Assembly (NCBI GenBank): GCA_035221665.1
Contig: CM069165.1
Span: 26,350,001-26,414,000 of the forward strand
Length of the DNA stretch: 64,000 nucleotides
Reading direction: 5' to 3'
Source: Okamejei kenojei
Lineage: Eukaryota
A program made the translations under genes and the position numbers. Positions 22,312 through 58,161 of the stretch are shown here, piece after piece. The notes beneath the pieces were generated by a model, which was given only the letters and a program-made list of their open reading frames with translations, ran no database searches and had not been told where the DNA came from. The stretch's first letter is position 1. Every line of letters begins with the position of its first letter.

Positions 22312-22454
22312 CTGAAAAATAAAATCCAAGCAGTAATTATTTAACTGGTTTCATTTGAAGAATACACTCACTACTTGGAGAGTTCGGTGCCAAACATCCT
22401 AAGAAAAGTATTAAGGACAGGAAGTTACTTAAATTCCGTAATGTCAGAAAGGAC

Positions 22455-23850
22455 TTGAGTGACTCCTCCCATTTCCTCCAAATCCAAGGCATAGCTATGG
22501 GCACGCTCATGGGCCCCAGCTATGCCTGCCTCTTTGTAGGGTACGTCGAACAATCCTTGTTCGAGGCGTACCGTGGCACTGTCTCCGAACTCTACCTCCG
22601 CTACATCGACGACTGCATTGGTGTTATCCCCTGCACCCATGCAGAACTCACTGACTTCATCAATTTCACCACAAACTTCCATCCGGCACTCAAATTCACC
22701 TGGACGATTTCCGACATCTCCCTACCATTTCTAGACCTCACTATCTCCATCGCAGGCAACAGACTTCTGACTGACATCCACTATAAACCCACTGACTCCC
22801 ATGGTTATCTGGGTTATACTTCTTCCCACCCTGCCTTATGTAAGAAATCTATTCCCTACTCCCAATTTCTACGTCTATGCCGGATCTGCACCCAGGATCA
22901 GGTGTTCCAAACCAGGGCATCGGAGATGTCCTCATTCTTCAGGAAACAGGGGTTCCCCTCTTCGACTATAGATGAGGCTCTCACCAGGGTCTCTTCTATA
23001 CCCCGTAACTTTGCTCTCACTCCCCATCCCCCCCACTCATAACAAGGGCAGAGTCCTCCTTGTCCTCACCTTCCACCCTACTAGCTGTCACATAAAAGTG
23101 ATAATCCTCCGACATTTTCACCACCTCCAACGGGATCCCACCACTGACCACATCTTCCCATCTCCTCCCCTTTCGGCTTTACGCAGAGACCGCTCCCTCC
23201 GTAACTCCCTGGTCAATTCTTCCCTTCCCACCCAAACCACCCCCTCCCCTGGTACTTTCCCTTGCAACCGCAGGAAATGCTACACTTATCGGTTTACCTC
23301 GCCCCTTGTCTCCATCCAAGGACCTAAGCAGTCTTTCCAGGTGCGGCAGAGGTTCACGTGCACCTCCCCCAACCTCATCTATTGCATCTGCTGCTCTAGG
23401 TGTCAGCTGTTCTATATCGGTGAGACCAAGCATAGGTTTGGCGATCGCTTCGCCCAACACCTCCGCTCAGTTCGCAATAACCAACCTGATCTCCCGATGG
23501 CTCAGCACTTCAACCCCTCCCATTCCGAATCCAATCTTTCTGTCCTGTGCCTCCTCTATGGCCAGAGTGAGTCACACCGTAAATTGGCAGAGCAGCACCT
23601 CATATTTCGCTTGGGTAGTTTAATTGACCTCCAATTTCAGGTAGTCCTTGCTCTCTCCCTCTTTCCCCTCCCCTTCCCAGCTCTCCCACAGCCCACTGTC
23701 TCCGCCTCTTCCTTTCTTCTGCCCGCCCCCCCCCCCCCCACCATCCCCTCATCAGTCTGAGGAATGGTCTGGTCCCGAAACATCACCCATTCCTTCGCTC
23801 CATTGATGCTGCCTCACCCGCTGAGTTTCTCCAGCATTTCTGTCTACCCA
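22455..23850 (+). mobile_element. 5'-truncated Penelope-like element: RT C-terminal half, GIY-YIG endonuclease and pseudo-LTR tail
   Basis: GIAMGTLMGPSYA and YLRYIDD RT motifs; NLIYCICCSRCQLFYIGET..GDRFAQH GIY-YIG motif; one frameshift near 23030. Confidence 0.95.
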
Positions 23851-26278: not shown

Positions 26279-26556
26279 AGGGCCTGTCCCACTTACCCGA
26301 TTTTATCGACGACTTGCCGGCACCCGTCATCGTCGCAGCAGGTTCGCGAAAATGTTCAAAATGTTGAAAATCCAAAAAGGCTTGACTCTTTGGGCGACTA
26401 CTCACCACCAAACAGGCGTTACCCCGGTGAGTAGTCGCCCAAAGAGTCATGCCTTTTTCTGGTCGCTGTTGGATTTTCAACATTTTGAAGATTTTCGTCG
26501 ACCTGCTGCGACTGTGACGGGCAAGTCGCCGAAATAAAATCAGCGGGACAGGCCCT
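26279..26556. mobile_element. PIF/Harbinger-type fold-back MITE
   Basis: Termini AGGGCCTGTCCC...GGGACAGGCCCT, flanks TAA and TAG; the whole element is an imperfect inverted repeat. Confidence 0.85.
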
Positions 26557-27508
26557 TAGATATGTGAAGAGAAAGAGGTTAGTTAAAACAAATGTAGGTC
26601 CCTTGCAGTCAGAAACAGGTGAGTTGATCATGGGGAACAAGGATATGGCGGACCAATTGAATAACTACTTTGGTTCCGTCTTCACTAAGGAAGACATAAA
26701 TAATCTGCCTGAAATAGCAGGGGACTGTGGGTCAAAGGAGGAATTGAGTGAAATCCAGGTCAGTCGGGAAGTGGTGTTGGGTAAATTGAATAGATTAAAG
26801 GCCGATAAATCCCCAGGGCCAGATAGGCTGCATCCCAGAGTGCTTAAGGAAGTAGCTCAGGAAATAGTGGATGCATTAGTGATAATCTTTCAAAACTCTT
26901 TAGATTCTGGAGTAGTTCCTGAGGATTGGCGGGTAGCAAATGTAACCCCTCTTTTTAAGAAGGGAGGGAGAGAGAAAACGGGGAATTACAGACCAGTTAG
27001 TCTAACATCGGTAGTGGGGAAACTGCTAGAGTCAGTTATTAAAGATGGGATAGCAGCACATTTGGAAAGTGGTGAAATCATTGGACAAAGTCAGCATGGA
27101 TTTACAAAAGGTAAATCATGTCTGACGAATCTTGTGGAATTTTTCGAGGATGTAACTAGTAGCGTGGATAAGGGAGAACCAGTGGATGTGGTATATCTGG
27201 ACTTCCAGAAGGCTTTCGACAAGGTCCCACATAAGAGATTAGTATACAAACTTAAAGCATACGGTATTAGGGGTTTCAGTATTGATGTGGATAGAGAACT
27301 GGCTGGCAAACAGGAAGCAAAGAGTAGGAGTAAACGGGTCCTTTTCACAATGGCAGGCAGTAACTAGTGGGGTACCGCAGGGCTCAGTGCTGGGACCCCA
27401 GCTATTTACAATATATATTAATGATCTGGATGAGGGAATTGAAGGCAATATCTCCAAGTTTGCGGATGACACTAAGCTGGGGGGCAGTGTTTCTATGTTT
27501 CTATGTTT
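26557..27508 (+). mobile_element. Young CR1/HER1 LINE RT fragment
   Basis: [60 protein letters not shown]; one frameshift near 27270; ends in (ttctatgt)2. Confidence 0.97.
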
Positions 27509-33285: not shown

Positions 33286-33660
33286 CTCAGGATGACCATG
33301 GGGTGAATATTACAGTTTAGACACCTTTTGTTTCACTCGTAACTATTTTGCGATCTTACAAATTTAAAAGCAAATTAGCTTTATTTCAGTAATATCTTTT
33401 TTTTTTAAGACATTGAATGTAGATAGACACAAAAAAAACTGTTCAGCGGGTCAGGCAGCTTCTCTGGAAAAAAGAAATAGGCGATGTTTTGGATCGAGTC
33501 CCTTCCTCAATGTGTACACAATGTGAAGAATGTTATCTGCACAACAATTCCCATATTCAGTTACACAACTCCATGTGGAGTTCCTGTGTAGCCCCGCACT
33601 GATACTCTCTCTTTACATTTGAATTACTGTAACAAAGAAAAATTGAAAAACAAACATTAC

Positions 33661-34707
33661 CTCTTGTCATTTATCCTATGTGGCTTCCTGACCAGGTACT
33701 CAAAATGATCGGTGATTTTGTTCGCAACCTTTGCAGTGCCTTTCCAACTTCCAAGCTGTGAAGGGGAACTTGTCGAAGGATACGTTTTTTGCTCTGACTT
33801 TACTGATCCATCCTTTAAACCACGGAATGTTTTCTGTTTTGCCTTTGGGAAGGAATCCTCACATTGACATTGCACATCCTTGTCCACCTCCATCATATCT
33901 TCATCGTTTTTATTATCAGAGTATGGATTAACACAATAAGACCTGTGGCACGGAGAAGCGTCCTCAAAACCTTCTGAAACTTTGGCTGTAAAACATGCAG
34001 GTTCAGTGTCTGATTCGTGAGGGCTATTATCAGCAAAGTCAAAGTGCACGGGAAAGATGGACTTGGTCTCTTTCTTAGCAGTGAGCCAATCTCCTGAATT
34101 TTCCTTCCCATGGTCTTGTTTTTCACCTCCACTTGTGCCAGGGGTACACTGTTCACACCCAGAATCAGAGAGCGGACTTTCAGGAACAACATAAATCTCA
34201 TCCTGTGAATCTTCATTAGAGTTCATGGTCTCAAGTTCTCTCAAGTGATGCTCCTCTTGGTTTTTTTCATCAGCCGGAGTGACAACAGTGTTCCTTGAGC
34301 CTTTTGAATCAGGAGGCTTTACCACCCATTCCTCAAGTGTGTTGCATTTCTTTTTATCTGGAATAATGTTCTTAGCTTTGTCTTTAGAACCAGAGGTTTC
34401 TAAAGTGGGGTTTGGTGCTATTTGGTTACCTCTATCATTTTCAGAGGCGTACCCGTCTACACTTTTAACTAAACAGACAGAGGACTGTTCAAACCTCTGA
34501 GTCTCCACGGCAAAGGAATATTTCCACTTTTGTTTCTGAACCTTCTCATCAAACTCACAGCACTCTGTTGATTTGCTACTCTTAGACTCGGTGCCTGAAG
34601 AATTAACCATCCTGTCCTGTTGCATGAACTGAACTGTCCACGTATCCTTGCATCCTCTCTCAGTGTCTTCTAATCCTCCGTCTTTGCCTTGTAGTTTTTT
34701 CTCAGTG
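33661..34707 (-). CDS. PARG: PARG large N-terminal regulatory exon, equivalent to human exon 3
   Basis: 1047-bp open frame, atgcag acceptor and gtaatg donor, phase 2/2; contains VVPESPLSD and the non-canonical PIP box KITDHF, as in human PARG. Confidence 0.93.
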
Positions 34708-35577
34708 CTGCATGATACAATGTAGAGAAGAATGAGAAAATACTTGAAAACAAATTACAATTTTAAATTGAACCACATTTAAAAAATATTTTTTGTCTTT
34801 AGCCATTCAACCAATCTCTTAGAGGCTTGAAAAATTAACTAGGTTACAATGCTTTATTCAATCATCGACTTATTTTCATCCTGACTAAATTGCACATGTT
34901 AAATCAATTGCAGCGGGATTTTTGAGAGTTAACTACAGGTGGCATGGCATAGGGTTGATATCATGAGTGATTTTGTTAAGGTTTATGATAAATCCTAGGA
35001 CCATTAAAAATGTACGCTGCAGCCCACTCAGCCCTTTGAGCCAATTCCTTCATTAAACATGATCTTTTAACTAAACCCCAAATTCTTGTTCTACCACATC
35101 AGTTGCTTGCTTTAACTTCTATAAATCCATGTCTATTCTGAAAATAACCACCGATTACTAATCCACTAGCACCCGAGGCATTGTACCCATGGCTCAGTTG
35201 GAAATAAAACTTTAACCTGGTTCAGTTCTTTTCACTAATTGTCTCTCTTACTGTCTTGTGTTAATATTTTTTCATTTTCTGAAAACAGCATGCTATCAGG
35301 ACCATGTTATCATTGGGAAGGGAAGCAACGGATTTTCTGCTGTTATGCTCTCTGTGGTTTCTGTTGAACAGGCTTATGCCTGGTCAATACTTGGGCGGGA
35401 GGCCACCAGGTTCGGTGGTAGTTGTTGCCTGAGAAAACACAATCCAAATCAGCAGACAACATTCATATTGAAAAAGGTTTTGTGGTCCTACGGCTAAAAA
35501 TAAAATGACTAGGTCAGAGAATCAAACATTATGGCTAGATTGTGAATCTTTAAACAGGATATGCTAGCTAGATTATA

Positions 35578-45389: not shown

Positions 45390-45599
45390 GTTGTCGATGT
45401 CCTCCATCCTGGCAAACCTACAGTTCCCAAAACAGAAATCAGGGAAAAGTTAGCAAAAATGTACAAAACAACGCCGGATGTTGTGTTCGTTTTTGGCTTC
45501 AGGACACAGTTTGGAGGAGGCAAAACAACAGGATTTGCCATGGTCTACGATTCCTTGGATTACGCGAAGAAGAATGAACCAAAACACAGGCTAGCAAGG
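45390..45599 (+). CDS. RPS24: RPS24 exon 3 ([14 protein letters not shown]...NEPKHRLAR)
   Basis: 210 bp, catag and gtgaaa sites; [15 protein letters not shown] signature. Confidence 0.98.
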
Positions 45600-45688
45600 G
45601 TGAAAAAGCAAATTATTTACCATTGGAGTTTTAGGAATACATGCTGCTCTCTCTGTATTTTCATTGATTTGTGTCCATTGTTTTTCAG

Positions 45689-45800
45689 CATGGTCTGTTG
45701 GAGAGGAAAAAGGTATCTAGGAAACAGCGAAAAGGAACGAAAGAACAGAATGAAGAAAGTTCGCGGAACAGCTAAAGCTAACGTTGGTGCTGGCAAGAAG
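45689..45800 (+). CDS. RPS24: RPS24 exon 4 ([37 protein letters not shown]), apparent +1 A at 45730-45733
   Basis: tttcag and gtatga sites; 112 nt instead of 111; deleting one A restores the conserved frame. Confidence 0.95.
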
Positions 45801-46187
45801 GTATGAAACTTTGTGGCAATGAAAATTTAATCCTCCTGCATTTTGTGTCACAATTTAGATTCTTATTCTTAGTATTGACCCTGCAGCTATCTGATCAGCT
45901 ACATCCCTATCAGCTTATCCCTGAAATCTCTCCATACATCCCTTGCTGTCTTCCTCCTTACCTCTTCCTAAACCTGTCTCCTTCATTGAACTGTTGGTCC
46001 TCTGTCTTGCTATTTTTATGACTTGCTTCATATTTTGCAATGGTTTTTTACTATGGTTTGTTAGTTTGAAAGTGTTATTGTGTTAAAATTTGTTTGAAGT
46101 GCCGTATTGTCATCTTGAGAACTTTGCTTTTCAGTATTGTCTTTCTTTTTGTTCATGTTTGCTATCTTTTTCTTCTCTGGACCACAG

Positions 46188-54335: not shown

Positions 54336-56379
54336 AAGATAACAATAATTCTGTCTCTGCAAAATCCTCCAGATCCACTTGAATGATAAGTGAACCACCA
54401 CTCTCAGGCCAACATTCCCAGCAATGAATATAGACACAAAAAGCTGGTCAGATAGGGAGAAAAGGAATAATGTTCCCGTGACACTTAATTCGGCTCTGCT
54501 GGGCAGGGCACATTGTTTACGTGTCTGACACCACAGTCCAAAACATATTGCCTTTGTTGTGGGAAGAGGCTATCAGGAAAGTGTTCAAGGAAGCACTTTA
54601 AGCCTCCTGGGATTAATGTAACATGCGCACTGAGTACTGGGAATGCTTGTACCATGATCACTCGATGTGGACAAGGAGTGCACAATCTCACAAGCTACTC
54701 ACTCACCCACCCAACCTATCACGAACCTTCTTCCTCATCTGTGAAAGGCTCTCCATTGCCACATTGGGCTCTGCAGTCACTTCAGGAGGACCCGGTGTGG
54801 GGGCCGCTGAGAGGGGGGGTGAGAACAACGGAGACCCGGCCTGGGGTACTTGGTAACTTTGTTGGTGCCCTTTGTGTGGTGACTATTTGCATACCTTGGA
54901 TACCTTGCAAAACAAAGGATATCACATAGGATGCATGTGACAAAATTCATCCATTCAGAACCCATAAGACTGGAGTGAAAGCACATCATCCTCGATCACA
55001 CGGGAATGTCGAAGCAGAAGAAGATTTTCATTATTTTCTGTCGAAAATTGTTCTATTACCAGCTTTAAGGTATTCATTGTGATTTCCCATGTAAAAGAGG
55101 GGTCCACAAAATGTTTTAATCTTCTTAATTGAAGAACACACATAGTGTCTTCTCTGGAGCGTCAGAGGTTGAGGCGAGACCTGATAGAAGTATATCAAAT
55201 TGTGAGAGGCATAGATAGAGTAGACATTCAGAACTTTGTATCCAGGCGGAAATGTTAAAAACCAGGGAGTGTTGCATTGATGTCAGAGGGGGAGCATTTT
55301 TTACACAGAGGTTGGTGGGTGCCTGGAACCAAAGATACTAGGGGAGCGCTCCGCTAGTATCTTTGCCTGGAACATTCTGCCTGGGGTAATTGTGCAACAG
55401 ATAAGATAATGACATTTTAAAGGCCTGTAGATAGGCCCATGGATATGTGTAAAATGGAGGGATATGGATTGCATGCAGGCAGAGTGGATTGACTTGGCAT
55501 CATGCTCAGCGCATGCATTGTGGGTAAAGGGCATGCTCATGTGCTGCACTGTGTGCGTTCAACTTTTACTTGGTTTCAACTTGTACACAAGGTTGCGGTT
55601 TGTGCGTATTTGAGCTTGAGCCACCTATCCAGCGGCAATCTGAATGGAAAATGAGAGACAAGTCCTACCGTAAATGCATTATGCATTTTAGCCATTGCAT
55701 CACTGACGAATGCCCATCGTATGTTTACAGGGGACCGACAGACATTATATAACAAGTAACTTTAATGTCCTTAGCTGATTGAATTGTTAGATTGCATTGG
55801 TGGACATTACTAATGGCATTGCTTCTACTCAATGGCATTGAGTATTAATATCCTCCAAACATTACATTACATTTCTCTCAGATGTATGAACAAAATGATC
55901 AATATTAATATTTAATAGCAGTTAATATCTTTTAACTGATGTAAATAATTATAATGTCATTAATATAATATATTGGATCCATATATACCCATTACTGCTT
56001 GAATTTAATAAAAATAATATATCACAGATTTGCTCATCTGTTTGTCATCAATTAGACTTTAACTAATCATTTTCTTAGGATAATTAAACATTTCAGTCCA
56101 TAAATGTTGATTATCCAATACGTGCCTAAATATTTTTAAAGCAACTTAATTATCTGACTGCAATATTAACTGAAGACACAAGGAATGAGGCAAAATACTA
56201 AACATTTACGGTAAACACATTTTTAATATGTTTTATGTAAAATGGTGGATGTGGTCAGCAGGATGGGTCACACCCATAGACTTAATGTTTCTGGTCAGCA
56301 GAACTGAAGAATTTACTGTTCTGGACTCTATATTCTTAAAAGGACACCAAGATAGTGAGACAGACACTAATGCTGTAGT

Positions 56380-56837
56380 CTTCTACTTATTCTTCTTCTT
56401 GCGCATGGCATGCACAGCCTAAAGTTGTGGTACAACTTGTTCTACTTGACCTTATTTGATCGTGCATACAAGGTTGATTTGCATTCGTTAAAACGGGGCG
56501 GACCACGTGAAGGTTATGGCCCTGTCCCACGGTACGAGTTCATTCCAAGCGCTCTCCCGAGTTTAAAAAAAAAAATCAAACTCGTGGTAAGCACGGAAAA
56601 TGAACATAGCGGGTACGTCGGAGCTCGGGGACGTCTCTTAGCAGCTCGTAACGCTAACGGCAGGTACTCGGGAAGACTCGTGAAGATTTTTCAACATGTT
56701 GAAAAATGTCCACGAGAGCCCCGAGTACCGACGGCCGGCCATTACCGTAAATCTCTGAGTTCGAATCAGGGCACATTCGGGAGAGCTCTTGGAATGAACT
56801 CATGTCGTGGGGCAGGGACATTACAATCTCCCACCCC
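56380..56837 (-). mobile_element. ~151-nt retroposon with 5' HDV-like ribozyme fold and (AAG)n tail, split by a MITE
   Basis: 11-bp TSD aatgctgtagt at 56369-56379 and 56838-56848; reconstructed 5' end GGGGTGG-GAGA-TTGTA-ACC-TTCACGT-GGT-CCGCCCC-G-TTTTAA-CGAA-TGCAA. Confidence 0.82.
56517..56820. mobile_element. PIF/Harbinger-type MITE
   Basis: TTA TSD on both sides; ~45-bp imperfect TIRs TGGCCCTGTCCCACG..GAGTTCATTCCAAG and CTTGGAATGAACTC..CGTGGGGCAGGGACA. Confidence 0.9.
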
Positions 56838-57922
56838 AATGCTGTAGTAACTCAGTGGGACAGGCAGCATCTCTGGAGAGAAGGAATGGGTGAAGTTTCG
56901 GGTCGAGACCCTTCTTCAGTTTGAAGATGGGTCTCGACCCAGAAACGCACCCATTCCTTCATCCTCAGATGCTGCTTGTCCCCCTGAGTAACTCCAGCAT
57001 TTTGAGCCTATCTTCGGTGTAAACCAGCATTCTGCAGTTCCTATCTTCAGGAAAATGCAGATATTGGAATTGTGTGCAAAATACAAAGTGCTGGAGGGTC
57101 AGGCAGCATCTGTGGAGGGAATGGACATTTCAGGACAGGATCCTTCAGTAGACTAAAAAATTAATCAGCATTAATGTGCTGCCTGACCTGAGTAGTTCTG
57201 GCATTTTGCCTCAAAATTCCAGCAGATGTGGAGTTTTGCTTCAGTCTGCATGAAGGCTTGGGTAATGGTTTTGGTTTGTGAGTCTCTGCACTGCCTAGCA
57301 AGTAGCGACACATTCCTCAGATCTCATCTCAATTTCTCTTCTGCCAATTTGTCCAAGTTTGGAACCATCTCCTTTTGAAGCAGTCCTCCACAATTTTGAT
57401 CCTGGTTTGTGGGTTCAGACTTAGGGGAGTGATGGTATTGTCTGTCTTATGTTCTGGTCCTGAATACAATTACCCACACTTTTCCCCAACATTCCTCCCT
57501 TGATAGTGCAAAATTCAACCCTTGACAATTGCAGTGATTGCAGTGTCTCCATCCACTCTGTCCACTGAACCAGTCAATAAAGAAAAGCTTGATGTTTGAC
57601 ATTAGTGCAACAAAAATGTTTGTTAATATAAACAATGGTTTATTTATTGTCACATGTACCTCGGTGAAATGAGGTTCTGTTTTTACATCAGCGAGATTAT
57701 TGGCATTCATAAGTAATCGATATGGTCAGTTTTACAGATTTTCAGTTGTGCGTATTTCTATTTTTAATTTTTTATTGTTGAAGGGATGCAACATTAGTGA
57801 CTCGTGATATTGGGCATTTACCCCAAAAGGATTGTATTGTGTGACCAGTGGCTCCATGTACATATTGCAAAAATGTTTAGTGAGAAGTTTCCAGAAAGGG
57901 TATCCCTCTGTTTGGGATCTCT

Positions 57923-58111
57923 TCTTGCGTTTGAGGCAGCAGAAGTCTGCAGCTATCTGGTTCGACATCGGTTGGTGCCCGCACTTGAAAAGGGCGCACG
58001 CTCCAGGTTGGTGCCATGCTGCGGTGCTGTTGCTGTCTCTGTTTGTTGTCGTTCGCCTGACTTGGGTCAGTTGACAGGGCTCACCACGGGGAGGTCAACA
58101 ACAGGAGCCCC
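57923..58111 (-). mobile_element. 189-nt retroposon headed by an HDV-like ribozyme
   Basis: 12-bp TSD tttgggatctct at 57911-57922 and 58112-58123; 3' end ..GCCTCAAACGCAAGA(AG); no tRNA A/B boxes. Confidence 0.88.
58044..58111 (-). ncRNA. HDV/CPEB3-like self-cleaving ribozyme fold (68 nt)
   Basis: P1 GGGGCUC/GAGCCCU with G1-U wobble; P2 UGUUGUUG/CGACAACA; P3 ACC/GGU; L3 UCCCCGU; single P1.1 C-G; P4 CUGAC-CCAA-GUCAG; J4/2 G-C-GAA with the catalytic-position C at 58055. Confidence 0.88.
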
Positions 58112-58161
58112 TTTGGGATCTCTGAGAAAGCACAGTAGATAAATGATACACATCACTGCGT

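Follow-up and report, generated by a model that had tools for sequence, protein, structure and literature searches.

Two short retroposon families of Okamejei kenojei read as head-plus-tail deletion derivatives of two LINE families with predicted ribozyme 5' ends

The 64-kb stretch of Okamejei kenojei DNA analysed here (hereafter the window) holds two short insertions, copies of families that we call A and B, each of which begins with a predicted HDV-like ribozyme and ends in a simple-repeat tail (Table 1). Such a pair raises the question of where these elements came from and what moved them: a first-pass annotation had proposed that the two, unrelated in body and helix sequence, share a 3' signature and consequently one autonomous partner. 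Our reading, to which we give a probability of about 0.88, is that A and B are internally deleted copies of two LINE families, V10 and V1 respectively, with 5' ends likely trimmed by the ribozyme, and that they were likely copied in trans via the 3' tail.

Table 1. Positions, in window coordinates, of the parts of the two insertions and of other features. TSD, target-site duplication.
Feature	Position	Strand	Remark
Short family A copy, ~135 nt element plus nested 304-bp insertion	56380..56837	-	Reads as V10 deletion derivative
A TSD, 11 bp, copy on element's 3' side	56369..56379	.	
A TSD, 11 bp, copy adjoining ribozyme's first G	56838..56848	.	
A head part 1: P1 and P2 5' strands, separated by nested insertion	56821..56837	-	
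A head part 2: P3, L3, P1', short P4, J4/2 CGAA, P2'	56476..56516	-	Predicted HDV-like ribozyme, disrupted here
A predicted head-to-tail stem, 5' strand	56461..56470	-	Decayed in this copy
A 3' piece from V10: final ORF codons and stop, stem 3' strand (56407-56416), CGC(AAG)n tail	56380..56430	-	
Nested non-coding element, MITE, ~45-bp terminal inverted repeats	56517..56820	.	TTA duplicated either side
Short family B copy, 191 nt here vs ~200 nt in family	57921..58111	-	Reads as V1 deletion derivative
B head: P1, P2, P3, P4 and J4/2 GCGAA all intact	58045..58111	-	Predicted HDV-like ribozyme
B predicted head-to-tail stem, 5' strand	58027..58039	-	
B 3' piece from V1 3' UTR: stem 3' strand (57933-57945) and CGCAAGAAG tail	57921..57946	-	
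B TSD, 12 bp	57911..57922	.	Final 2 nt overlap tail
B TSD, 12 bp, adjoining ribozyme's first G	58112..58123	.	
Ribosomal protein S24e exon(s)	45390..45806	+	PF01282, E 4e-33
365-aa open frame	33657..34754	-	No Pfam match; likely long exon of neighbouring gene
Fragmented RT-like frame, then weak GIY-YIG match	22359..23760	+	GIY-YIG E 6e-4, below cut-off; presumably Penelope-like
RT fragment	26489..27367	+	PF00078, E 3e-14; presumably CR1-like element

A and B are genuine retroposon families, each with many copies of fixed structure, variable TSDs and a simple-repeat tail. First-look searches of the 2.76-Gb genome returned 2185 candidates for family A (~135 nt) and 1330 for family B (~200 nt), 40 of each being scored, and the 46-nt head of B stands unchanged in 279 genome places, V1 copies counted too. 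TSDs of 6–20 bp were present in 49/56 A copies and of 7–20 bp in all 28 B copies; lengths of 11–12 bp, as annotated, lie near the mode of both (13/49 and 13/28) and fit the window's own copies, at 11 bp (56369/56838) and 12 bp (57911/58112), within families that range wider. The window's B copy is 85% identical to young B copies, and in its A copy the ribozyme is interrupted by the nested 304-bp inverted-repeat element (56517–56820), a MITE that we take to be Harbinger-like. Internal pieces related to this element occur at six further loci.

No significant similarity was found between the bodies of A and B, much as had been claimed, but the companion claim of unrelated helix sequences fails, for the two heads agree at 18/22 nt over P3-L3-P1'. 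The supposedly shared end, a hairpin followed by UGCC-N3-5-CGCAAGAAG, stood only in part. The motif itself (TGCC-N3-5-CGCAAGAAG in DNA) has just two occurrences in the window, 56395–56410 and 57921–57938, with a maximum of 0 per shuffle over 100 shuffles; across 30 copies per family, however, the tetramer preceding the tail is TGCC in 25/30 of B but in a minority, 6/30, of A (CGCC in 17/30), and the hairpins are non-homologous. These small hairpins before the tail appear not to have been inherited from the LINEs, because on a reading of the sequences the V10 3' end lacks the 5' arm of A's (AAGTTGT), while B's spans the deletion junction. The local hairpins had been candidates for a shared RT signal, and were discarded as such since the parent LINEs are without them.

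The heads have the nested double-pseudoknot layout of P1, P2 and P3 with a 7-nt L3 and P4, a J4/2 of ACGAA in A and GCGAA in B, and a G1.T wobble in both. Both parse with P3 ACC/GGT, as first noted, yet these letters are generic, ACC/GGU being present in the Rfam consensuses of RF02682 and RF01787 too; likewise, the P3-L3-P1' letters common to A and B also occur in Rfam HDV-like consensuses. Against RF02682 the B head reached E 1.2e-4 (32.8 bits, below the gathering score of 44) and the A head E 1.6, again below the gathering score, at which an Rfam scan of the window gave 0 matches. By scripted parse, P1, P2 and P3 pairing is kept with differing letters in A, B/V1, V2, V4, V5 and two families from outside this genome, F1 and F2, and P3 is broken in one V3 copy (L312); ribozyme-like heads were found in five families plus V10. 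The TSD boundary lies exactly at G1 in 21/49 A and 21/28 B copies, and at most 1 nt off in 37/49 and 25/28, as would be expected of an RNA cut at its first G by the predicted self-cleavage. HE1, a SINE of sharks and rays, carries a head of tRNA origin and shares its 3' end with the LINE HER1. A and B resemble it as short elements sharing a LINE 3' end, and to that extent the parallel drawn by the first-pass annotation is apt; it is otherwise loose, in that A and B are headed by the ribozyme-like 5' ends of the LINEs themselves, not by borrowed small RNAs or a tRNA-derived head with a Pol III promoter.

The parents were sought with a degenerate pattern of an RT motif, which matched at 269 places, as against none when the control pattern was reversed; 30 RT-motif loci resolved into about nine families, and there was one further family besides. 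The pattern missed V10, whose motif is DLSSAYDTV. Since V1, V2 and V4 all end in CGCAAGAAG, this 9-mer is best regarded as a clade signature; most other families end in CG-N0-2-(AAG)n, and V6 and V11 differ. Elements of 3.1–3.3 kb running from ribozyme to CGC(AAG)n exist in the genome for each of the two ribozymes, and the suggestion that A and B are bipartite deletion derivatives of related APE-RT LINEs holds, with V10 sharing the ends of A and V1 those of B. A consists of the 5' ~77 nt and the last ~36 nt of V10: the latter piece is present in 28/30 V10 3'-end loci, and a near-full-length V10 copy of 3.09 kb (L301), set in a TSD, starts with nt 10–77 of the A head and ends with A's tail. A search with the last 62 nt of A reached no LINE; the loci that it returned were treated as short copies. 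B consists of the 5' ~220 nt and the last ~26 nt of V1, its nt 1–172 aligning to V1 5' ends, a single 47-nt gap apart, and reaching the ORF start, and its last 24–26 nt matching the V1 3' UTR. The exact tail of B was found at 190 non-B places, with V1-type sequence upstream in nearly all of the 100 listed, and two V1 copies (L303, L304) have both ends, with TSDs. A and B are thus, as far as sequence can tell, internally deleted head-plus-tail copies of two distinct LINE families.

Deletions of this kind recur independently in V1, V2 and V10. Five of 30 V1-tailed loci are other head-plus-tail derivatives, four of them of a ~295-nt type (B0) and the fifth a separate one joining nt 1–106 to the last 71; because all five carry B's ACTTCTG variant, B was likely trimmed stepwise from V1 through B0. 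The A variants at L224 and L230 have other V10 5'/3' junctions, which suggests separate births of A-type elements. V2 is represented by copies such as L168 and L169, each of 3.2 kb, with TSDs of 12 and 11 bp, a head 86% like B's and the end CATACGCAAGAAG; both ORFs are frameshifted, and no intact V2 ORF was seen in these or in four further long copies read over the first 1.5 kb. A ~95-nt V2 derivative at L460 (1484–1580, oriented), made up of the ribozyme and the last ~19 nt in a 12-bp TSD, appears to be a minimal element caught newborn. In twelve V1 copies (L182, L187, L189, L192, L197, L201–L205, L209 and L210) a deletion runs from P4 and takes in the stem strand; these copies, flanks included, have been multiplied by segmental duplication and lie on several contigs.

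Ages bear on which LINE did the copying. On samples that are best matches rather than random draws, median pairwise identity (%) is 93.8–94.5 for A, 93.5–93.6 for V10, 87.3–90.7 for V1, 99.1 for V2 and 96.4 for B, and pairs at least 99% alike make up 96/405 in B and 1/757 in A. A is the same age as V10. The young B copies (99–100% alike) are later than every independent V1 copy seen (~89%), and V2 was the only young family found; as B postdates the V1 copies and its age fits V2, we are inclined to think that young B switched to V2, the sister of V1, while another young LINE family, missed as V10 was by the RT-motif pattern, may be driving it. Near-identical V1 pairs, potentially young V1 copies, were discounted as such where checked, since they mostly share flanks and read as duplications: seven of nine APE-region pairs share at least 273/300 flank letters and the other two only 105 and 155 in the compared stretch, and both near-identical 3' pairs share flanks.

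The claim of one autonomous partner is not upheld by these parentages, with A from V10, B from V1 and the CGCAAGAAG 9-mer also at V2 and V4 ends, and no single LINE family with the ends of both A and B was found among the families recovered. In a weaker form, V2 may now mobilise B. That a single LINE, today V2, mobilises both A and B would suit its standing as sole young family found (median 99.1%), its end, which agrees with A's tail over all of its last 13 nt (13/13) and with B's at 17/19, its TSDs of 9–15 bp and, weakly, a single contig from another sample that spans the empty site of V2 copy L169 (1199–4411), itself hinting weakly at polymorphism of V2 insertions. It is improbable, given that the 36-nt tail and head of A come from V10 and those of B from V1, and that A is no younger than V10 (the single pair in 757) and so needs no later driver. 

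The clade of the parents invites a similar weighing. V1, V2 and V10 are compact single-ORF APE-RT elements of ~3.1–3.2 kb, frameshifted in every copy read. V2 matched PF03372/PF14529 (APE) and PF00078 (RT) and V10 matched PF00078, a 155-aa V10 APE piece being without Pfam match; no RNase H scored in the V2 and V10 pieces, with control protein P0031 positive. A genome search with PF14529 recovered elements that are presumably Nimb-, L2-, CR1- and L1-like, none of them carrying A or B heads. The nearest long database proteins (1030–1050 aa, APE and RT, without RNase H) show 46–55% identity, against near 30% for RNase-H-bearing ones; further database proteins are up to 71% identical to V2. The V2 protein of L117 is 62–75% identical to database proteins P0121–P0130, one of them named from teleost fish. 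V10 and V2 proteins are 45% identical over 409 aa. In a 28-row tree, whose rows hold no named Vingi or RTE references, the RNase-H-less rows form one clade (100/100), within which V1, V2 and two database proteins group together (100/100) with V10 outside; a V1 plus V10 clade is rejected (p-AU 1.8e-5, an earlier quick tree having been seen first), and V1 and V10 read as distant from one another. Vingi, in the available text of PMC13708176, is defined as compact, with a single ORF and no RNase H, and the 5' end of Vingi-2_Gav (Repbase), as given in the PMC5786205 supplement, shows by eye a head laid out in the same way, with TTCACGT as its loop. From that definition and that likeness the parents are likely of the Vingi clade. 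Of the first-pass choice between Ingi/Vingi and RTE, therefore, the Vingi part fits best, on trees that have no RTE reference. Parents from the RTE clade or the RNase-H-bearing Ingi clade could be argued for from the accessible part of PMC5786205, which lists both among ribozyme carriers and among the sources of bipartite elements, and from the lack of named references in the trees, but the silent RNase H scan, the gap between 46–55% and near 30% identity and the Vingi-2_Gav likeness make them highly improbable.

Established LINE and HDV-ribozyme biology suggests how A and B, as deleted copies of V10 and V1, would have moved. A read-through or Pol II transcript would be trimmed at its 5' end by the predicted self-cleavage at G1, after which a LINE protein would recognise the 3' tail and carry out target-primed reverse transcription in trans, a step to which the shared tails, TSDs and ages point. 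Seven sequencing runs considered for expression are probably DNA and consist of contigs, and so speak neither way. A would have moved alongside V10 while both were active, and the young B subfamily likely changed driver to V2. Deletion products retaining head, stem and tail would stay mobile, A and B being two that spread. Less surely, a stem between the post-ribozyme stretch and the 3' UTR would hold the RNA ends together, and would place nt ~70–105 beside the RT, favouring inversions and deletions there.

Inversions do pile up at this point in V2 and V10. Six of 30 V10 3' ends, picked regardless of their 5' side, bear an inverted head ending at nt 70–77, three of the inverted-head loci with TSDs of 7–8 bp, and one additional such locus lies elsewhere. 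The exact head 28-mer of V2 stands at 17 places: six long colinear copies, four head-plus-tail deletions with TSDs, five inversions, one long inversion and one lone head. In the five inversions the head piece ends at nt 84–104, with a 9–15-bp TSD and a 2–6 nt overlap each, and in both families the breaks fall shortly after the 5' strand of the stem; the inversions in V1 and V3 are long. Altogether 12/17 head-bearing inversions end at nt 70–105, a count that includes the long V3 inversion L114 and takes in neither L461, the lone head, nor L424, a headless V1 piece of 28 nt; before L114 was added, 12/16 gave a binomial p of 1e-9 or less under simple length models, for an interval picked after viewing the data. 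L1 5' inversions arise by twin priming, and those described here are alike in having an inverted 5' piece, a 3' piece, one TSD and 2–6 nt of microhomology; unlike in L1, the inverted piece is mostly the first 70–105 nt of a 3.1-kb RNA.

Whether the ends of the RNA indeed pair is a matter of prediction. After the ribozyme, A and B RNAs are each predicted to form a single domain whose closing stem joins the sequence next to P2 with that next to the tail (z −2.7 and −3.9), and the equivalent complementarity sits 3 kb apart in the parent LINEs. Taking the longest perfect stem that the 40 nt following P2 can form with the 40 nt ahead of the tail, and setting it against body windows, gave 8 bp (1/156 windows) and 6 bp (17/148) in V1, 7 bp in V2 (8/152), V5 (3/146) and V10 (13/146), 6 bp in V3 (35/146) and 5 bp in V4 (85/146; 93/172); V6–V9 and V11 were not among the families whose 5' ends were recovered. 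Outside families F1 and F2, drawn from metagenome contigs (23/80 loci inspected, three used), gave a perfect 10 bp in F1, from an unrelated animal (0/132 and 0/158 control windows), and 6 bp in F2 (39/148). The combined p is about 0.001 for eight families with the weaker copy of each, two of which, V1 and V2, are sisters, on a perfect-stem measure chosen after a noisier energy test; the signal is clear in three families and weak in five, and the stem alone is unconvincing in V3, V4, V10, F2 and one V1 copy. In a 40-nt duplex-energy test the own family was best in 8/11 rows, with V3, V4, V10 and V1a no better than body windows. Between V1 and V2 the stem keeps the same register with letters changed on both strands (GAGACAG/CTG-CCTC vs GAGTCAG/CTGACTC), and the deletion junction of the L460 element falls inside the predicted end-to-end stem.

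We hold it as tentative, at somewhat under an even chance, that Vingi-type LINE RNA forms a closed loop in which the post-ribozyme stretch pairs with the 3' UTR, bringing the 5' end to the target-primed RT and making nt ~70–105 a twin-priming hot spot and the element a steady source of mini-elements that can outlive their parent via a sister family. The complementarity may instead be chance or a by-product, with the hot spot arising from an A/C-rich single-stranded linker or from protein binding to the ribozyme; the stems are after all short (6–10 bp) and in five of the eight families not significant alone, the V10/A stem has the palindrome GTGCAC at its base and scores nearly as well as a direct repeat (7 vs 8), the own-family duplex is not best in 3/11 rows, the head inversions of V1 and V3 run long, and in V1, V2 and V10 the stem is followed by an A/C-rich run. 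This alternative would sit less easily with a combined p of about 0.001 on the weaker copies, the register kept by V1 and V2 despite changes on both strands, the F1 stem unmatched in 132 and 158 control windows, the retention of the stem as closing helix by both short families and the L460 deletion, which joins two strands within it; it, too, is a doubtful proposition that we rate just short of evens.

A and B belong to a kind already known (SIDE, NARTc, RIME), the end pairing being possibly a new structural feature. The available text of PMC5786205 describes bipartite derivatives of RTE, Ingi, Vingi and R2, leaves Vingi off its ribozyme list and leaves open why bipartite elements arise only from these four; the internal-deletion derivatives of Vingi-1_EE and the Vingi-derived SINE parts that it describes are likewise bipartite and ORF-less. 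In trypanosomes, NARTc/L1Tc and RIME/ingi, as far as the text of PMC4035085 at hand goes, have parents that carry RNase H, unlike those here, and differ also in that here two distant parents each gave one short family in an animal genome. In Drosophila, the R2 SIDEs and the R2/R1 hybrid SIDEs (PMC3414825, in the text consulted) are alike in combining a 5' ribozyme with a LINE 3' end, in mobilisation in trans, which for A and B we infer, and in progressive shortening; Drosophila SIDEs are, however, rare and site-specific in rDNA, whereas A and B are dispersed over more than a thousand places with variable TSDs, and each took its head and its tail from a single parent. Anole Vingi-1 serves as a gene-insertion platform whose donors are flanked by both UTRs, according to the available text of PMC13708176. 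A literature search that reached few subscription papers, patents or Repbase reports found no account of families A and B, of end pairing in Vingi elements or of a hot spot like this one, and an earlier description of these elements is possible. As V1, V2 and V10 in one genome have each yielded head-plus-tail deletions, ribozyme-like heads recur across families and inversions cluster just beyond a stretch complementary to the 3' UTR, the RNA-cyclisation model is directly testable. If true, a closed loop would explain both the small number of LINE clades that make bipartite elements and the use of both UTRs in Vingi donor RNAs, and end pairing would bear on Vingi donor design and on inversion by-products.

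Among the other LINEs of this genome, an RNase-H-type copy at L093, presumably Nimb-like, has an open 1276-aa ORF2 and a 401-aa ORF1.
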